Source: a virus
Lineage: Duplodnaviria > Caudoviricetes
Length of the DNA: 36,740 nt
Virus record (IMG/VR): IMGVR_UViG_3300042868_014222
Span: 1-36,740 of that record
Direction: 5' to 3' (one strand)
Of the stretch, positions 2,905-17,495 are shown piece after piece. The notes under the pieces are model-generated. The model searched no databases. It was not told where the DNA came from and saw nothing but the letters and a program-made list of their open reading frames with translations. The stretch's first letter is position 1, and the number at the start of each line of letters is the position of its first letter. Both the position numbers and the translations under genes were made by a program.

Positions 2905-3914
2905 GCCGGCATCACCCCACCCTCTCGCCTTCGTCTCTGGACAAGAAGGCAGCTTGCCTGCACTTCACGGGCAAGCCTGTAGGCAAGGCCGCAAATCGTG
3001 GAACCGAACTTCACGAGAAGTTGGCTGACGCCTTCAATCGCCGCGAGACCCCTTCTGACCCCCTCCTCAAGAGGGCGGCAGACAGGGCGAGGAACTACAT
3101 CGCATCGGTGCAAGGCATTGAAGAGGAGGTGCAACTCCTCGACAACGACCTCAATCAGATCAGTTTCGGCACGGTTGACCTCTGGGGACACTCGCAGGAC
3201 GGGGGGCTAGTCCTTCTGGATTGGAAGTCGGGGGTGCAGTCACCCGATACCTACCTTCACCAGATGGCGTTTTATTCACTCGCCCTCATGGAGCAGGAGG
3301 ACGCCGACGAGTGTCAGGCAGTCATTGTCCCGATTGACAACGACGATGCCGAAGCATTCGCAACGAGTTTCACCCGTGAGAGTGCGGCAGAGTTGATCTA
3401 CCCGCTGATTGAGAGGATCAAGGGCATGGAGGAAGGCCCGAAGGAGAACCAGTTCTGCAACTGGTGCGCGAAGAGGAAGGAGTGTCCCATCTGGACGCTG
3501 CCTGCCGCTGAAGCGATCACTCCCGTCAGGGAGAAGCTCCTGTTCACGGAGTCGGATGCGCTTGAGAGGCCCGAAGCCTACATGGACGCCTTCAAGAAGT
3601 TGGAAGGCATCTTCGATAGTTGGGGCATCAAGGAGGCGCTGAAGGCAAAGCTAGAGGCCGGTATCGAAGTCCCCGGTTGGAAGTTGCAGATTCGCAAGGG
3701 AGTCGCATCTGTCAACGATGTCGAGGCAGTCCTACGCGAAGTGGTCGAACGGATTGGGTACGCCAAGGCGTCGAAGTTCGTGAGCATCAAGGCCGGTGAG
3801 ATGGTGAAAGCGTGGTCGGCCTACACTACGGGGCATCTCCCCGCCGGTGTCGAGGTCAGCGAAGGAGAAGGAACAACCGCGCTTGTGCAGGACAAGAAGG
3901 GAGGTGCCAAGTGA
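2901..3914 (+). CDS. Cas4-like PD-(D/E)XK exonuclease (DUF2800-like)
   Basis: LSPSS..C, GTELH, GTVDL, LLDWKSG, QMAFY, CNWC..RKECP Fe-S cysteines; start moved to ATG 2901 (SD plus ATGA overlap). Confidence 0.85.
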   Translation: MSRHHPTLSPSSLDKKAACLHFTGKPVGKAANRGTELHEKLADAFNRRETPSDPLLKRAADRARNYIASVQGIEEEVQLLDNDLNQISFGTVDLWGHSQDGGLVLLDWKSGVQSPDTYLHQMAFYSLALMEQEDADECQAVIVPIDNDDAEAFATSFTRESAAELIYPLIERIKGMEEGPKENQFCNWCAKRKECPIWTLPAAEAITPVREKLLFTESDALERPEAYMDAFKKLEGIFDSWGIKEALKAKLEAGIEVPGWKLQIRKGVASVNDVEAVLREVVERIGYAKASKFVSIKAGEMVKAWSAYTTGHLPAGVEVSEGEGTTALVQDKKGGAK

Positions 3915-6915: not shown

Positions 6916-7620
6916 ATGCCAAACAGGATTATCAGAGAAGGCATCCTTACCAGCGAGAAGTTTGAAAGACTCGGCTGGGCGGAGGAGATATTCTACCGGC
7001 GCATCATGTCGGTAGTCGATGACTACGGAAGGTACTACGCTAAACCGGCATTGCTACGGGCTGCTTGCTACCCGCTATTGTTGCAGAAAGTATCCGACTC
7101 GGACATTGAGAAGTGGCTCACCGCCTGCGTGAACTCGGCTCTTGTAAGGGTGTACCCGGCAAAGGACGGGAAGCGATACTTGGAAATCTTGGATTTTCGG
7201 CAGCAAGTGCGGTCAAATACCAGCAAGTTCCCAGCATATGATGAGCAGTTGCATAGCACGTGCATAGCAGATGCTACGCATATGATATCAAATGCTCACC
7301 TAGACGGAGACGTATCCGTATTCGTAGACGAAGACGATAAAAGGTCGCCATCGGGCGAGTCGTTTGAGCGATTCTGGTCTGCATACCCAAAAAAGGTTGG
7401 CAAGGCCAATGCCATCAAGGAGTGGAAGAAGGCTTCCCCAGACATCGAATCAGTCCTTCAATCCCTGTCCCGTCAGAAGGCATGGAGAGAAAACCCTGCG
7501 GAAGGCGAGTTCATCCCGGCATGGAAAGATCCCGAAAGGTGGATCAAGGCCGGTTGCTGGAATGACGAGGTGTCGGTTCCAGAGGAGCAGGACGAGTGGG
7601 CCGCATTCCCAAGGAGCTAA
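6916..7620 (+). CDS. Phage replication initiator protein
   Basis: MPNRIIREGILTS..DDYGR N-domain; C-terminal FERFWSAYPKKVGKANA..WKK..P.RW...W.DE; upstream of DnaB. Confidence 0.85.
   Translation: MPNRIIREGILTSEKFERLGWAEEIFYRRIMSVVDDYGRYYAKPALLRAACYPLLLQKVSDSDIEKWLTACVNSALVRVYPAKDGKRYLEILDFRQQVRSNTSKFPAYDEQLHSTCIADATHMISNAHLDGDVSVFVDEDDKRSPSGESFERFWSAYPKKVGKANAIKEWKKASPDIESVLQSLSRQKAWRENPAEGEFIPAWKDPERWIKAGCWNDEVSVPEEQDEWAAFPRS
7239..7300. repeat. 11-bp periodic iterons, probable origin of replication
   Basis: TGATGAGCA 7239, TGCATAGCA 7250 and 7261, TGCTACGCA 7272, TGATATCAA 7283 inside the initiator linker. Confidence 0.6.
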
Positions 7621-14151: not shown

Positions 14152-15060
14152 ATGATCACATCTGACGCCATTGCCGCAGACCCCGTGGACGGAAACGCCC
14201 TCTTAAGTCAGCAGGCTAACACCCCTCCCCCTAGCACCCCCTCGCCCATTGGGGATAACCTCCTCTCGACCCCTGCACCAGAGGCGCCGGCCTCCAACTC
14301 GCCTTGGGTCAATGACAAGGGAGAGTTTTCCGAAGGTTGGCTTGACCGCCTTCCGAAGGAACTATCCGAACACAAGCAGATCCTCGGTCAGTTCAAGGAC
14401 ATCGACGGGGCGCTCAAGACCCTTGTTTCGCAGCAGAAGATGCTCGGCAAGAAGGCCGATGCCATCCTGATCCCTGACGACAAGGCTTCTCCCGAAGAGA
14501 AAGCCGCATTCCTCCGTAAGCTCGGAGTGCCAGAGTCACCCGAAGCGTACCAACTCCGCCCGAAGGATCTCCCTGCCGGCTATGAGTGGGATGACAATGT
14601 GGCGAAAGAGTTCAATGCCCTTGCCCATCAGAACGGAATCACCCCGAAGCAGATGGATGCCCTCATGGGGCGCTATGCCGCCCTTGAGTCGCAGAAGGCC
14701 GAAGCCGCAGCTTCCCAGCAGAAAGCCGAGATCGAAGCCGGTCGCAAGACCCTGGCTGAAGCGTGGGGCGACAAGTACGATGTGGAGCTATCGGTTGCCC
14801 GTCGAGCCGCACAAGTCGCCGGCGTCGATGTCAACTCCAAGGGGTTCTCTGACCCTTCGGTCGTCCTCGCCTTCAACCGACTCGCCCGGATGATGTCTGA
14901 TGACAAGATCGTGAACAGCGATACCGCAGGAACCATGATGGCAGGCAAGGCCCGTGCGATGGACATCATGACCAACCCCTCCAACCCCCTGCATGGCAAG
15001 TATGCCTCTGGGGACAAGACAACCGCTGATCTGGTCTCTGACCTTCTGAAAAATGGATAA
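14152..15060 (+). CDS. Capsid assembly scaffolding protein
   Basis: WLDRLP..L, KLGVPESPEAY, A...GITPKQ, L...WG..YD motifs; upstream of the capsid gene. Confidence 0.85.
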   Translation: MITSDAIAADPVDGNALLSQQANTPPPSTPSPIGDNLLSTPAPEAPASNSPWVNDKGEFSEGWLDRLPKELSEHKQILGQFKDIDGALKTLVSQQKMLGKKADAILIPDDKASPEEKAAFLRKLGVPESPEAYQLRPKDLPAGYEWDDNVAKEFNALAHQNGITPKQMDALMGRYAALESQKAEAAASQQKAEIEAGRKTLAEAWGDKYDVELSVARRAAQVAGVDVNSKGFSDPSVVLAFNRLARMMSDDKIVNSDTAGTMMAGKARAMDIMTNPSNPLHGKYASGDKTTADLVSDLLKNG

Positions 15061-15373
15061 CCAATACGACAACGAACGCAAGGGCGTCCTCTTCCTCAAG
15101 GGGAGCGAGAACCCGAAAGCCCCCAAGTGGTCGGGCAAGATGACCCTCAGAGGCGTCGAGTACCAGGTTGCCGCATGGGAGAAGATGTCCAAGTCGGGAA
15201 AGGATATGCTGACTATCTCCATCACCGACAAGCCGGCAGGAGGAAGCTATGCGAACTCCCCAAGGCGCGACGACTATCCTCCATCCCCTGCTCTGGTGGC
15301 TCATAACAAGGCCAAGGCCAACGGCTACCAGAAGCAGTATCAAGAGGATGATACGGACGGCATTCCCTTTTAA
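15053..15373 (+). CDS. Small ssDNA-binding-like protein (DUF736-like) with acidic DDTDGIPF tail
   Basis: GVLF..ENPKAP.WSG...GVEY.VAAW..SKSG..L.ISI; SSB-type C-terminus. Confidence 0.7.
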   Translation: MDNQYDNERKGVLFLKGSENPKAPKWSGKMTLRGVEYQVAAWEKMSKSGKDMLTISITDKPAGGSYANSPRRDDYPPSPALVAHNKAKANGYQKQYQEDDTDGIPF

Positions 15374-15397: not shown

Positions 15398-15434
15398 AAG
15401 CCCTCACCGGGAAACTGGTGGGGGTTTTGCTTTT
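15398..15434 (+). terminator. Rho-independent terminator
   Basis: AAGCCCTCACCGG-GAAA-CTGGTGGGGGTTT stem then TGCTTTT. Confidence 0.85.
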
Positions 15435-15597
15435 GCGGAGAATAGCCCGATTATTCACCGCATAACACCCGATTGGGATGTCAGCTATAGCTACCGTTAC
15501 CGGCCTTAATTTCCGCTAAAGGAAACCTTACTTGTTAAAGAAACGCATCGGTATCTTTAATAGCTAACAGAGTTGTTAAAGATTGGCAGACGGCAAA
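15434..15597. repeat. Array of 8-9 different abutting imperfect palindromes
   Basis: Individual inverted repeats are listed in the findings; no ORF in the track. Confidence 0.7.
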
Positions 15598-15602
15598 TGT
15601 GT

Positions 15603-15673
15603 AAGTCGGAGGGGGATTTGAACCCCCATACCCTCCATTGGGAGGGATCTTGCCCCCTTTAGATCATCCGACT
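15603..15673 (-). ncRNA. tRNA-like RNA with a 4-nt loop in place of the anticodon loop
   Basis: AGTCGGA-TG-ATCT(AAAGGGGGCA)AGAT-CCCTCC(CAAT)GGAGGG-TAT-GGGGG(TTCAAAT)CCCCC-TCCGACT-T; all four stems are perfect Watson-Crick. Confidence 0.8.
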
Positions 15674-15681
15674 GACATCGG

Positions 15682-15709
15682 ACTCTACAAATCATTTCAG
15701 AAACCGCAA
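15682..15709 (-). promoter_or_regulatory. Candidate promoter for the tRNA-like RNA
   Basis: TTGCGG-N16-TAGAGT ending 8 nt before the acceptor stem. Confidence 0.45.
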
Positions 15710-15767
15710 TCTTTTTGTGCGAATTATCGTTGACGGGTTAGGTGGGTGATGTTAGTTGCTTGAAATA

Positions 15768-15891
15768 GACAAACCGAGAGGCAACCCCTCTAGCAATTGC
15801 TAGGTGTGGATCTGTGTAGGTTGGTCATCCCCGAAGTTAAGTGATCCCGTAAGGGGCAACCTCTTGTTCGGTTTAGTCAGTATCCTACACA
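15768..15891 (+). ncRNA. Structured 5' leader of the major capsid gene
   Basis: AAACCGA/TCGGTTT outer helix, CTAGCAATTGCTAG hairpin, two GGCAACC motifs, crossing helix TGTGTAGG/CCTACACA. Confidence 0.55.
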
Positions 15892-15911: not shown

Positions 15912-16835
15912 ATGCTTCAGATCCCCGATCACTACGTTATCCAGTACGAGACCAACTGGCAGCACCTCCTTCAGCAGATGGAGTCCCGCCTCAAGGAGAA
16001 GACCAAGTTCGTCAGCGCCTCTGGTGCCGCCGTCCGCTTCAACCAGTATGGACTCACCTCCATGTCCCAGGTCACGACCCGTAACGCTTCGACGCCGACC
16101 GCCAACAGCGATCTGCCGACCCGTTGGGCGTATCCGACTCCCTACGACATCGCCAATCGCTTCAGCGAGTTCGACAACCTCTTCCTCGGAAGCGTTGTCC
16201 TGCCCACCTCGGAGTGTATGCAGTCGCAGGCCGCAGCTTACGGGCGTCTGGTTGACAAGATCCTCATCGATGCCCTCACCGCATCCGCGACGATCACCAA
16301 CACAGCCAACACCTCCGCTGGTTTTGGTCTGAACAACACCACAACCACCGTTGCCCTCCCCGCAGGCCAGTCGGTTGCTGTGAACTACGTCCCTGCCGGC
16401 GGAACCGCTACCAACAGCGGTCTCACCATCGGCAAGCTCCGCGAGGCCAAGCGCATCCTTGATGCGAACGAAGCCCCCGCAGAGGATCGCGTTCTCATCG
16501 TGAGCGCCAAGGAGATCAGCGATCTTCTCGGCACCACCGAGGTGACCAGCAATCTGTTCAACAGCGTCCGGGCCCTTGTGGACGGAGATGTCGATCAGTT
16601 CCTTGGGTTCAAGGTTGTTCGTTCCGAGCAGCTGAACTTCCCGTCCGCCAACATCCGTGGTTGCGTGGCCTACCACAAGAATGCGGCGGTCGTCGTGGAC
16701 GGCGGCAAGCGGTCCTACATGGACGTTCTGCCCACCCAGTCCCATGCCCTCCAGATCCGCAGCACAGCGGTTCTCGGTGCGACCCGCCTCCTTGAGAGCG
16801 GTGTCGTGAGCATCCTGGCCGACACCACCAAGTAA
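15912..16835 (+). CDS. Major capsid protein
   Basis: VIQY..N.QHLLQQMESRL, AAAYGR..D..I, GLTIGKL, EVTS..FNSVRALVDG.VDQFLGF, GATRL.E.GVV. Confidence 0.92.
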   Translation: MLQIPDHYVIQYETNWQHLLQQMESRLKEKTKFVSASGAAVRFNQYGLTSMSQVTTRNASTPTANSDLPTRWAYPTPYDIANRFSEFDNLFLGSVVLPTSECMQSQAAAYGRLVDKILIDALTASATITNTANTSAGFGLNNTTTTVALPAGQSVAVNYVPAGGTATNSGLTIGKLREAKRILDANEAPAEDRVLIVSAKEISDLLGTTEVTSNLFNSVRALVDGDVDQFLGFKVVRSEQLNFPSANIRGCVAYHKNAAVVVDGGKRSYMDVLPTQSHALQIRSTAVLGATRLLESGVVSILADTTK

Positions 16836-16848
16836 GTAATCACAAGTC

Positions 16849-16889
16849 GGGGGTGGGGCGTCCAGCGAGGCGTCCCACCCCTTTCTTTT
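16849..16889 (+). terminator. Rho-independent terminator after the capsid gene
   Basis: GGGGGTGGGGCGTC...GGCGTCCCACCCC followed by TTTCTTTT. Confidence 0.85.
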
Positions 16890-16904
16890 ACAACTCGAAA
16901 AACT

Positions 16905-17495
16905 ATGGATTCCACGACCATCTGCAACCTTGCCCTCTCAAAAATCGGCGATCAGATGATCATGTCGTTGGATGATCCGAGCATTGAAGCTCGGTTCTGC
17001 AAGCTGCACTACGCACCGACGCTTGCCTCTCTACTGCGGATGCACGATTGGAATTGGGCCGTGGGCATGACCCAGCTTGCCCAACTTTCCACGCCTCCCC
17101 CCTTTGATTGGGATTACTCCTACCAGCTTCCCTCTGATTTTGCCCGTATCCTGACGCTCAACGCTTTTCAAGCCAACGAGCCTTACTGCAACTTCGACAT
17201 CATCGGTGACAAGCTGATGACCGATGAGGGCAGCGCCTCCATCACCTACGTCAAGAGTGCCGTTGACCCGAATTTATTCGACCCGATGTTCGTGGAGCTT
17301 CTTGCACTTGCCATTGCCGCGAAGCTCGCCAAGCCCCTCGGAGGGTCTATGGACATCAAGCAGCGCCTTGAGCAGGACTTGAAGCAGATGCTTGGGGAAG
17401 CCCGGAGGATCGACGCACAGGACTCCTACCCCCGCCGCAAACCGATGTGGCTTAACTCCGACCTCGTTCAGTCACGCTACAACGGCATCTACTGA
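16905..17495 (+). CDS. Tail tubular protein A / adaptor
   Basis: ICNLALSKIG, H.WNWA, YSYQLPSD, FDPMFVE.LA..IA..LA. Confidence 0.9.
   Translation: MDSTTICNLALSKIGDQMIMSLDDPSIEARFCKLHYAPTLASLLRMHDWNWAVGMTQLAQLSTPPPFDWDYSYQLPSDFARILTLNAFQANEPYCNFDIIGDKLMTDEGSASITYVKSAVDPNLFDPMFVELLALAIAAKLAKPLGGSMDIKQRLEQDLKQMLGEARRIDAQDSYPRRKPMWLNSDLVQSRYNGIY

Follow-up and report, generated by a model that had tools for sequence, protein, structure and literature searches.

The window, by which we mean the whole 36,740-nucleotide stretch that was analyzed, is a 36.7-kb temperate phage genome whose record is classed as a provirus. Its genes include those for integrase, recombination, replication, terminase, head-tail adaptor (portal-sized), capsid, tail-tube, and lysis functions (PHROGs). 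Among Pelagibacter phages, the best matches to the capsid protein show 33–37% identity. The sole hint of a host is an integrase that is 39% identical to one in a Spartobacteria assembly, and Verrucomicrobiota genomes were therefore taken as the working host set. The locus studied here is a gene-free gap upstream of the capsid gene, between the terminator of the single-strand DNA-binding protein (SSB) gene and a minus-strand tRNA-like gene. It and its surroundings comprise the following features:

15053..15373, plus strand: SSB gene, the left border (PHROGs phrog_18154, E 2.6e-8).
15398..15427, plus strand: intrinsic terminator-like hairpin after the SSB gene, kept in close relatives.
15434..15462, no strand: dyad 1, a stand-alone DUF4172-Fic promoter palindrome with 11-bp arms and a 7-bp spacer; a firm assignment (at a DUF4172-Fic start in 83/121 bacterial loci).
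15464..15481, no strand: CCC-N4-GGG dyad, weakly similar to the HipB-type operators found in HTH_3-HipA operons (PWM rank 11 of 36,723).
15478..15526, no strand: 49-nt module (dyads 3–6), loosely like the PDC-M59A gene palindrome (8/37 gaps; also L310).
15513..15535, no strand: possible coding palindrome of RhuM type (PDC-S05), of which just the core and the right arm are present; a weak assignment (PWM rank 6 of 36,718).
15535..15581, no strand: dyads 7 and 8, a three-half-site copy of the SoFic-type (Fic_N-Fic) promoter element; a good assignment on few examples (sequence match).
15583..15596, no strand: weak dyad 9 (4/5 arm pairs, variable in relatives), which may be what is left of a minus-strand tRNA-like 3' end.
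15603..15673, minus strand: tRNA-like gene with a shortened anticodon loop (ARAGORN tRNA-???; Rfam RF00005, 40.7 bits; fold).
15682..15709, minus strand: conserved leftward promoter-like motif, presumably serving the tRNA-like gene and possibly the array (18/37 gaps).
15730..15785, plus strand: probable late promoter and capsid transcript start region (TTGACG at 15730).
15912..16835, plus strand: major capsid protein gene, the right border (PHROGs phrog_3437, E 3.6e-50).

A promoter consensus scan called no promoter, the motif at 15682..15709 included. RNA contigs of relatives, from two studies, start at 15782 and 15785, which is a weak hint of the capsid transcript start; these contigs do not reach the array and are thus uninformative on its expression. 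Neither the phage nor five of its relatives (three of them near-complete) encodes a Fic domain or gene.

The sequence-only reading had described this gap as nine unrelated palindromes packed edge to edge, proposed to form together a library of binding sites for several foreign proteins. All nine dyads are indeed present at the coordinates given, dyad 1 with 11 of 14 arm pairs and AGCTATAGCT as a perfect palindrome, just as claimed; the dyad at 15535–15560 pairs at 10 of 13 positions. The packing is tight, with gaps that we measured at 0–5 bp rather than the reported 0–4 bp. Palindrome density is above chance, but only modestly so. We compared the best non-overlapping dyad score of the array with those of 500 dinucleotide shuffles at three thresholds: the scores were 37.0 (shuffled, 21.8 ± 6.5; 8/500 shuffles reach it), 31.0 (shuffled, 19.7; 30/500), and 31.0 (shuffled, 8.4; 2/500). 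Other tiles of the phage genome, near 7181–7301 and 16841, match or beat the array's score. Density by itself is insufficient for the claim; the cross-genome comparison carries it. The high-scoring tiles span approximately 7181–7460 and 16841–17040, and the first of them lies within the replication initiator gene and may be the origin.

In agreement with the sequence-only reading, the array is not a CRISPR array or a REP cluster, and it is not a tandem repeat either: no unit is common to all of its members, and the only families have two copies. The division into nine separate units proved too fine. Dyads 7 and 8 constitute one element of three half-sites, in which TTGTTAAAGA recurs at 41 nt (a repeat internal to this module), and dyads 3–6 overlap a single 49-nt module that moves block-wise in relatives and recurs in the viral contig L310. 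The array has an RNA-folding z of −2.7 on the plus strand and, for 15400–15700, of −2.8 on the minus strand; an Rfam scan returned the neighboring tRNA and no other family. When the array was compared by BLASTN with isolated phages and with plasmids, all matches were weak (E 0.1–6). One of them, to a T5-like Klebsiella phage, was left uncounted owing to its longer spacer: in Klebsiella phage Sugarland (L706, 1505–1542), a long dyad has SoFic-type arms with a spacer 3 bp longer (E 0.1–6). Seventy-five Klebsiella phage records are among the matches listed; the match is weak, and these T5-like phages carrying the long dyad are culturable.

What, then, are the individual units? Dyad 1 reproduces exactly a palindrome found immediately 5' of DUF4172-Fic genes. 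A scan of bacterial genomes yielded at least 121 loci with this dyad (approximately 1800 are estimated in the collection). In 83 of the 121, a DUF4172-Fic start is at a distance of −40 to 150 nt from it (55/80 loci with full flanks and 28/41 with short flanks). The assignment means that the encoded protein is related to the Fic protein of locus L058; three loci were confirmed to have both DUF4172 and Fic domains (Pfam). Orphan copies make up 38 of the 121 loci. A position weight matrix (PWM) built from the DUF4172-Fic sites gives the window copy a score of 40.0, the next-best position in the window scoring −16.5. Among Verrucomicrobiota, the dyad occurs in 8 of 201 genomes (control, 0), one of which is the seed genome; three of these eight sites are at a Fic start and five have no adjoining Fic start.

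The DUF4172-Fic promoters hold two to six half-sites. We found a sigma70-like promoter in 35 of the 83 loci, and in 26 of these 35 a dyad is wholly upstream of the −35 element. At the two arm positions that the search pattern leaves free, the bases pair in 43 of 125 distinct dyads and do not pair in 82, and the spacers are unpaired as well. This behavior argues for a double-stranded DNA site; judged by its sequence variation, dyad 1 is a DNA site and not an RNA stem, and the RNA-hairpin alternative that the sequence-only reading had put forward fails for this unit. The DUF4172-Fic protein matches the PADLOC SoFic model (E 3.5e-44), and it is on this match that we base a putative anti-phage role for the family. 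Its closest solved homologue is CbFic2 (PDB 8CIL; E 4e-98 over 2–363). On plasmid pCAR3 (L707, 1490–1531), an orphan three-half-site DUF4172-Fic element adjoins the promoter of a PrlF-YhaV toxin-antitoxin operon.

The element formed by dyads 7 and 8 leads to a second Fic family. A three-half-site pattern was derived from the window and from L569, and it was scanned in 401 Verrucomicrobiota genomes. Six genomes matched. Two matches are exact, and both are at Fic_N-Fic genes (G083 and G051); the remaining four have two mismatches, lie in unrelated places, and are at the level of the control (7 genomes). As the pattern was written with L569, which is the same as G083, in view, G051 represents the only independent exact match. 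In G051, the element is located at the 3' end of the Fic_N-Fic gene as a 41-nt tandem repeat, a period equal to that at which the half-site repeats in the window. Positions 15535–15581 of the window are identical to the two exact matches at 32/47 and 29/47 nucleotides, with identical spacing. The Fic_N-Fic proteins at these sites match the PADLOC SoFic model (E 7e-114 and 5e-93) and align with the solved SoFic across their length.

A scan for the 27-bp dyad within this element, CTTTAA..TTAAAG, returned 77 viral loci, two of them directly before Fic_N-Fic genes (L240 and L245); we did not count the 77 as enrichment, as many are inside long ORFs and may be chance occurrences. In genomes, the 27-bp SoFic-type pattern matched 1 of 301, against 9 for the control. 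One of 30 Verrucomicrobiota Fic_N promoters (L569) has the window's layout. Many other SoFic-type promoters (L560–L589, 260 nt upstream of the Fic_N match) have, by eye, inverted repeats of their own that differ from one another, which suggests that operator specificities have diversified in this family. Inverted repeats in the −35/−10 region of the fic gene, the mark of CccR-type autoregulatory operators, are seen for the bacterial copies with both gene types: 83/121 at DUF4172-Fic starts, and G083, L240, and L245 before Fic_N-Fic.

From these comparisons, we consider it very probable that the units at 15434–15462 and 15535–15581 are copies of Fic promoter elements. The expectation that units would be found independently elsewhere, in promoters of other genes, holds for these two: the promoters belong to bacterial genes for Fic toxins, to which the PADLOC SoFic model gives matches. 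The proposed library for several foreign proteins stands to the extent of these two firm units; nine unrelated targets are not borne out, as three of the assignments are weak and other dyads have none.

Viral contigs carry dyad 1 mostly without a Fic gene nearby. The pattern was found at 38 viral loci compared to 0 for the reversed control pattern, and its chance expectation is <0.04 per 1e11 bases. Five of the 38 adjoin a Fic gene; the other 33 have none within 600 nt. These 33 orphan loci contain 20 distinct dyads, and three of the 33 loci are from close relatives of the window phage. The orphans differ in shape between the two settings: 16 of the 20 distinct viral ones are single dyads, whereas 32 of 37 bacterial ones keep at least three half-sites (Fisher p 1e-6). 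Being trimmed to one dyad, the viral orphans do not resemble leftover promoters. The ORFs flanking the 20 orphans have PHROGs matches in 12 cases (including endolysins and helicases) and none in 8, and at least 7 of the 20 lie within ORFs of more than 150 codons. Fic-type dyads are in frame inside phage coding sequences for an endolysin and a helicase (L042, 601–629; L045, 601–629), and in L206 (approximately 1000–1050), RhuM-like and SoFic-like dyads are adjacent within one ORF. Clustering of the viral orphan Fic dyads with other palindromes is not significant (p=0.14). Arrays are the exception; they are found in the window phage group and, by eye, in L046, L047, L059, L067, and L074.

How stable is the array among relatives? 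A capsid search yielded 38 loci, of which 36 include the upstream gap; the two without a capsid start were left out, and the window brings the number of gaps to 37. The SSB-capsid gap, a cassette built of modules, is between 240 and 1386 nt long. Of the 37 gaps, 20 have tRNA-like genes, 18 the leftward promoter-like motif, 8 the GCTATAGC module, 4 the TGTTCTCCCA dyad, and 3 the CCC-N4-GGG dyad. The Fic modules are confined to the gap, the 27-bp dyad being present in 15/37 and dyad 1 in 5/37: across 289,737 nt of flanks, the Fic-type, GCTATAGC, and TGTTCTCCCA patterns had 0 matches. CCC-N4-GGG matched 10 times in the same flanks, and the leftward motif has a background of 9 matches in 290 kb. 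The predicted shuffling of sites among related phages is observed for the two Fic units. In L031 (57% capsid identity), for example, dyad 1 has another spacer and follows, rather than precedes, the CCC-N4-GGG copies. Nine distinct phage copies of the 27-bp dyad have arms that are 98% identical and spacers that are 65% identical; the copies were selected by their arms, such that the arm identity is partly built in.

In distant relatives, a TGTTCTCCCA..TGGGAGAACA dyad with a variable spacer stands in for the Fic modules. Its sites are at gap offset 115 in L018 and L021, at offset 98 in L029 and L030, and in L692; the TGTTCTCCCA dyad was found at 7 viral loci, and its cognate gene was not found. 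The same intergenic hotspot holds extra ORFs that are HNH-like by eye (L007, 2877–3345; L009, 1925–2520; L013, 3345–3820). In L005 (approximately 3185–3245), two short direct-repeat pairs, one with a period of 11, resemble the 12-bp tandem repeats of 9/30 HATPase_c_4 loci.

Members of the tRNA-like family also occur in L008 (approximately 3145–3220), L007 (approximately 3575–3650), and L029 (3516–3585). The acceptor and T arms are conserved, and the anticodon loops are variable and often shortened. In 10 relatives, the cassette also contains a tRNA-Trp(CCA) according to ARAGORN. We regard the tRNA-like genes as candidate decoys for tRNA-targeting toxins. HipT kinases inhibit TrpS (PMC6581861), and HipBST-like operons own one of the candidate operators.

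The other units of the array gave weaker assignments. The HipB-, PDC-M59-, and RhuM-type matches were picked after the array had been seen; they are post hoc and serve as leads only. In an unbiased comparison of words, 11 phage cassettes and 154 defense loci (RhuM, Fic_N, HipA, DUF1016, HATPase_c_4, and ORF6N) shared nothing above the level of shuffles; HipB-type matches headed the lists for L001 and L031 only. It is also in L001 and L031 that the likeness to HipB-type operators is clearer, and tandem. The CCC-N4-GGG pattern occurs in 9 of 151 genomes (control, 3). Four of these nine matches are multi-copy, three of the four preceding HTH_3-HipA operons; of the rest, two precede heavy-metal ATPase-like genes and three are within coding sequence. 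A copper-repressor-type site is an alternative for 15464..15481. The operator of L592 shares the window's 10-nt core exactly, and the flanks of the window copy are poor (PWM score 0.8). The HipB-type tandem pattern, which was overly strict, had 0 matches in viral contigs.

For the 49-nt module, no cognate gene was found. The PDC-M59A PWM ranks it 4 of 36,715 but with a score of −10.9, a loose match. A symmetrized motif prompted in part by the GCTATAGC module was found in 15 viral contigs, mostly intergenic and none adjoining a related gene; it is inside the PDC-M59A coding sequence in 44/120 metagenome loci. PDC-M59A precedes a Doc-like toxin in both loci inspected. In unrelated viral contigs (L395–L409), free-standing palindromes of the PDC-M59A type occur as perfect or near-perfect 20–26-mers, often just 3' of a stop codon. 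AGCTATAGCT did not hold up as a unit of its own: scanning for 14 nt returned at least 119 loci (approximately 410 estimated) in which the flanks are not conserved, and among the loci listed the module is present only in the window phage group and L310. For the RhuM-type candidate, the AAGG-AAA-CCTT region of the window ranks 6 for the AAG subtype. RhuM genes have a hypervariable palindrome in their own codons, at the same position in 25/30 loci. Long coding-sequence palindromes are found in RhuM, DUF1016, ORF6N, and PDC-M59A genes (L530–L559, L599–L626, L659–L688, and L410–L529), and they are hypervariable between homologues in RhuM, DUF1016, and ORF6N.

What might a phage gain from promoter sites without the gene? 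We lean, with a little more than even confidence, toward the cassette being a counter-defense decoy array that would act like BstA-aba but be heterologous and multi-target. In this scheme, DUF4172-Fic and SoFic-type enzymes of the host are predicted to bind the phage-borne sites during phage DNA replication. The replicating phage would offer many cognate dyads, the enzyme would be held as a DNA-bound dimer, and AMPylation of host targets would be prevented or reversed. The proposal presumes that the palindromes are bound sites, that the host carries matching enzymes, that DUF4172-Fic proteins defend, and that binding to phage DNA lowers their toxicity. It is drawn from the two units that are Fic promoter elements, the DNA-type variation of dyad 1, the lack of a Fic gene in the phage, the exchange of modules among relatives, and the orphan sites of other viral contigs, which are in excess and are trimmed.

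The biochemistry of the enzymes bears on the sign of such an effect. The CbFic2 monomer is a toxic AMPylase, which DNA converts into a dimer that deAMPylates; the assays used generic DNA, with no specific site shown, and the authors offer the speculation that the related CccR, in its own cell, is kept non-toxic by being bound to the promoter (PMC10628234). CccR autorepresses via palindromes at −35/−10 (PMC9755527). SoFic, which was found as an anti-phage system (bioRxiv 2022.05.11.491447; PMC12249575), binds the 100 bp that precede its own start codon (bioRxiv 10.64898/2026.07.09.737422) and depends on dimerization for AMPylation (bioRxiv 10.64898/2026.07.09.737422; PMC12249575). As SoFic needs the dimer for AMPylation, there is no guarantee that dimers of the Fic_N type are harmless when DNA stabilizes them. 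Simple titration of an autorepressor would also derepress the toxin gene, so that the effect may have a different sign in each of the two families; the likelier benefit is that the enzyme is held in its DNA-bound form. Against a decoy, both elements are rare in Verrucomicrobiota (8/201; 2/401 exact), and orphan copies are common in bacteria too.

Four other explanations were weighed. We think it unlikely that the sites are co-opted for regulation, with host Fic repressors on the cassette serving as a roadblock or sensor for the leftward tRNA-like transcript or for capsid read-through, so that the phage tunes expression to host defenses. Phages use host repressor boxes such as LexA, the cassette is between a terminator and two promoter-like regions, and an orphan dyad is just 5' of a start codon in some other viral contigs (e.g., L047). 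In the window, however, the sites are 120–270 nt from the leftward motif and downstream of the tRNA-like gene, and on the other strand they are behind a terminator. The set of sites is also exchangeable and missing in many relatives, and the orphans inside long ORFs do not fit this arrangement.

Rather unlikely, too, is that the sites are neutral scars, left behind by Fic or toxin-antitoxin genes repeatedly gained and lost at a hotspot. The many bacterial orphans (38/121) and the extra ORFs that mark the gap as an insertion hotspot in L007, L009, and L013 would suit such a history, as would the one Fic_N gene with the element at its 3' end, which is expected for sites that bracket a gene. Scars sit poorly with the lack of a Fic gene in the phage and five relatives, with the trimming of viral orphans to one dyad, unlike bacterial promoter remnants, and with arms that are better conserved than spacers in the nine copies of the 27-bp dyad (themselves picked by arms).

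It is improbable that the dyads act as RNA hairpins in a leftward transcript with the tRNA-like gene, as small-RNA decoys or processing signals. The frequency of the leftward motif and of tRNA-like genes in the gaps, the folding z of about −2.7, and the T runs after some orphan dyads (L041), which could double as terminators, are in keeping with such hairpins; they are opposed by the anti-pairing of dyad 1 (43 vs. 82) and its unpaired spacers, by bacterial copies upstream of −35, by the lack of a match to an Rfam family, and by a three-half-site spacing that is that of the promoter element. Finally, arming of the lysogen, wherein the prophage would titrate Fic autorepressors and raise the host toxin for protection against superinfecting phages, accords with the provirus class, the integrase, and the autorepression of CccR through such palindromes (PMC9755527), but we deem it very improbable: the same effect would harm the phage on induction, and one extra dyad against two to six native half-sites means that a single-copy prophage titrates little.

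The counter-defense decoy that we prefer admits a broader and more tentative form, to which we give less than even credence: Fic-wHTH, HipBA, PDC-M59, RhuM, ORF6N, and DUF1016 proteins would be harmless on their own palindromes, with DNA as the antitoxin, and would be unleashed once infection removes or outnumbers these sites, and phages would answer with swappable libraries of stolen sites, a widespread, protein-free counter-defense whose content lists the defenses of the host population. Whatever their function, phages carry Fic promoter sites without the gene. The comparisons predict where proteins of two large Fic families bind, SoFic being an established anti-phage system, and they provide matched protein-site pairs with which to ask what triggers Fic-wHTH proteins during infection and by what means phages evade them. 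If the decoy reading is true, counter-defense fits in 30–50 bp of non-coding or recoded DNA, which gene-centered screens miss, and orphan palindromes in phages are a route to unknown defense proteins.

The closest functional parallel is BstA-aba of Salmonella prophage BTP1 (Owen et al. 2021, PMC8585504), in which a defense protein is neutralized by a DNA element that works in trans when it is present at high copy. The aba element is a short, allele-specific DNA from the defense gene's own 5' region that neutralizes the cognate protein, and the proposed action of the phage array would be of this kind. It rescues phage replication in cis or in trans, and it was shown to function between terminators and in both orientations. 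Whereas aba acts as DNA and not as RNA or peptide, for dyad 1 it is the sequence variation that fits a DNA site. The two differ in other respects. By the same account, aba lies in the BstA-encoding locus, whereas the array has no cognate gene in the phage; aba has terminal direct CCCGCC repeats, which by our reading of the sequence are absent from 15434–15597, where the array consists of palindromes; and the array, whose function is predicted, packs several specificities. No BstA-like annotation was seen among the 37 phage proteins scanned, an annotation-level look. The array is not a member of the aba family.

Fic-wHTH enzymes are the proteins whose sites the firm modules resemble. CccR, SoFic, and CbFic2 are dimeric and bind DNA via a C-terminal winged helix, and CccR and SoFic bind their own promoters, the kind of place where bacterial copies of both firm modules sit. 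The CccR site comprises two 10-bp repeats 26 bp apart, with sequences that differ from those of the phage modules (PMC9755527), and the accessible reports on SoFic and CbFic2 define no specific site (bioRxiv 10.64898/2026.07.09.737422; PMC10628234). In that material, none of these sites is reported as a free-standing phage element. An operator of the CccR type lies at the gene that it regulates, whereas the phage copies (in the phage and five relatives) have no Fic gene beside them. In the case of HipBA/HipBST operators (PMC6581861), the likeness lies in the multi-copy CCC-N4-GGG dyads that HTH_3-HipA operons have in their promoters, to which the second unit and the tandems of L001 and L031 are similar; the window copy differs in its poor flanks, and its core also precedes heavy-metal ATPases in 2/9 matches. 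In our literature search, which went by listings and abstracts and covered few subscription papers, neither Fic operators carried by phages nor arrays of operator decoys had been reported.

Non-coding phage countermeasures of another kind act as RNA. Pseudo-ToxI of phage TE is reportedly an RNA antitoxin mimic, a non-coding phage copy of a host antidote, and phage tRNAs act against anticodon nucleases. The cassette has a likeness to the phage tRNA countermeasures in that it also carries tRNA and tRNA-like genes; RNA mimics and phage tRNAs function as RNA, whereas the evidence for the array points to double-stranded DNA sites.
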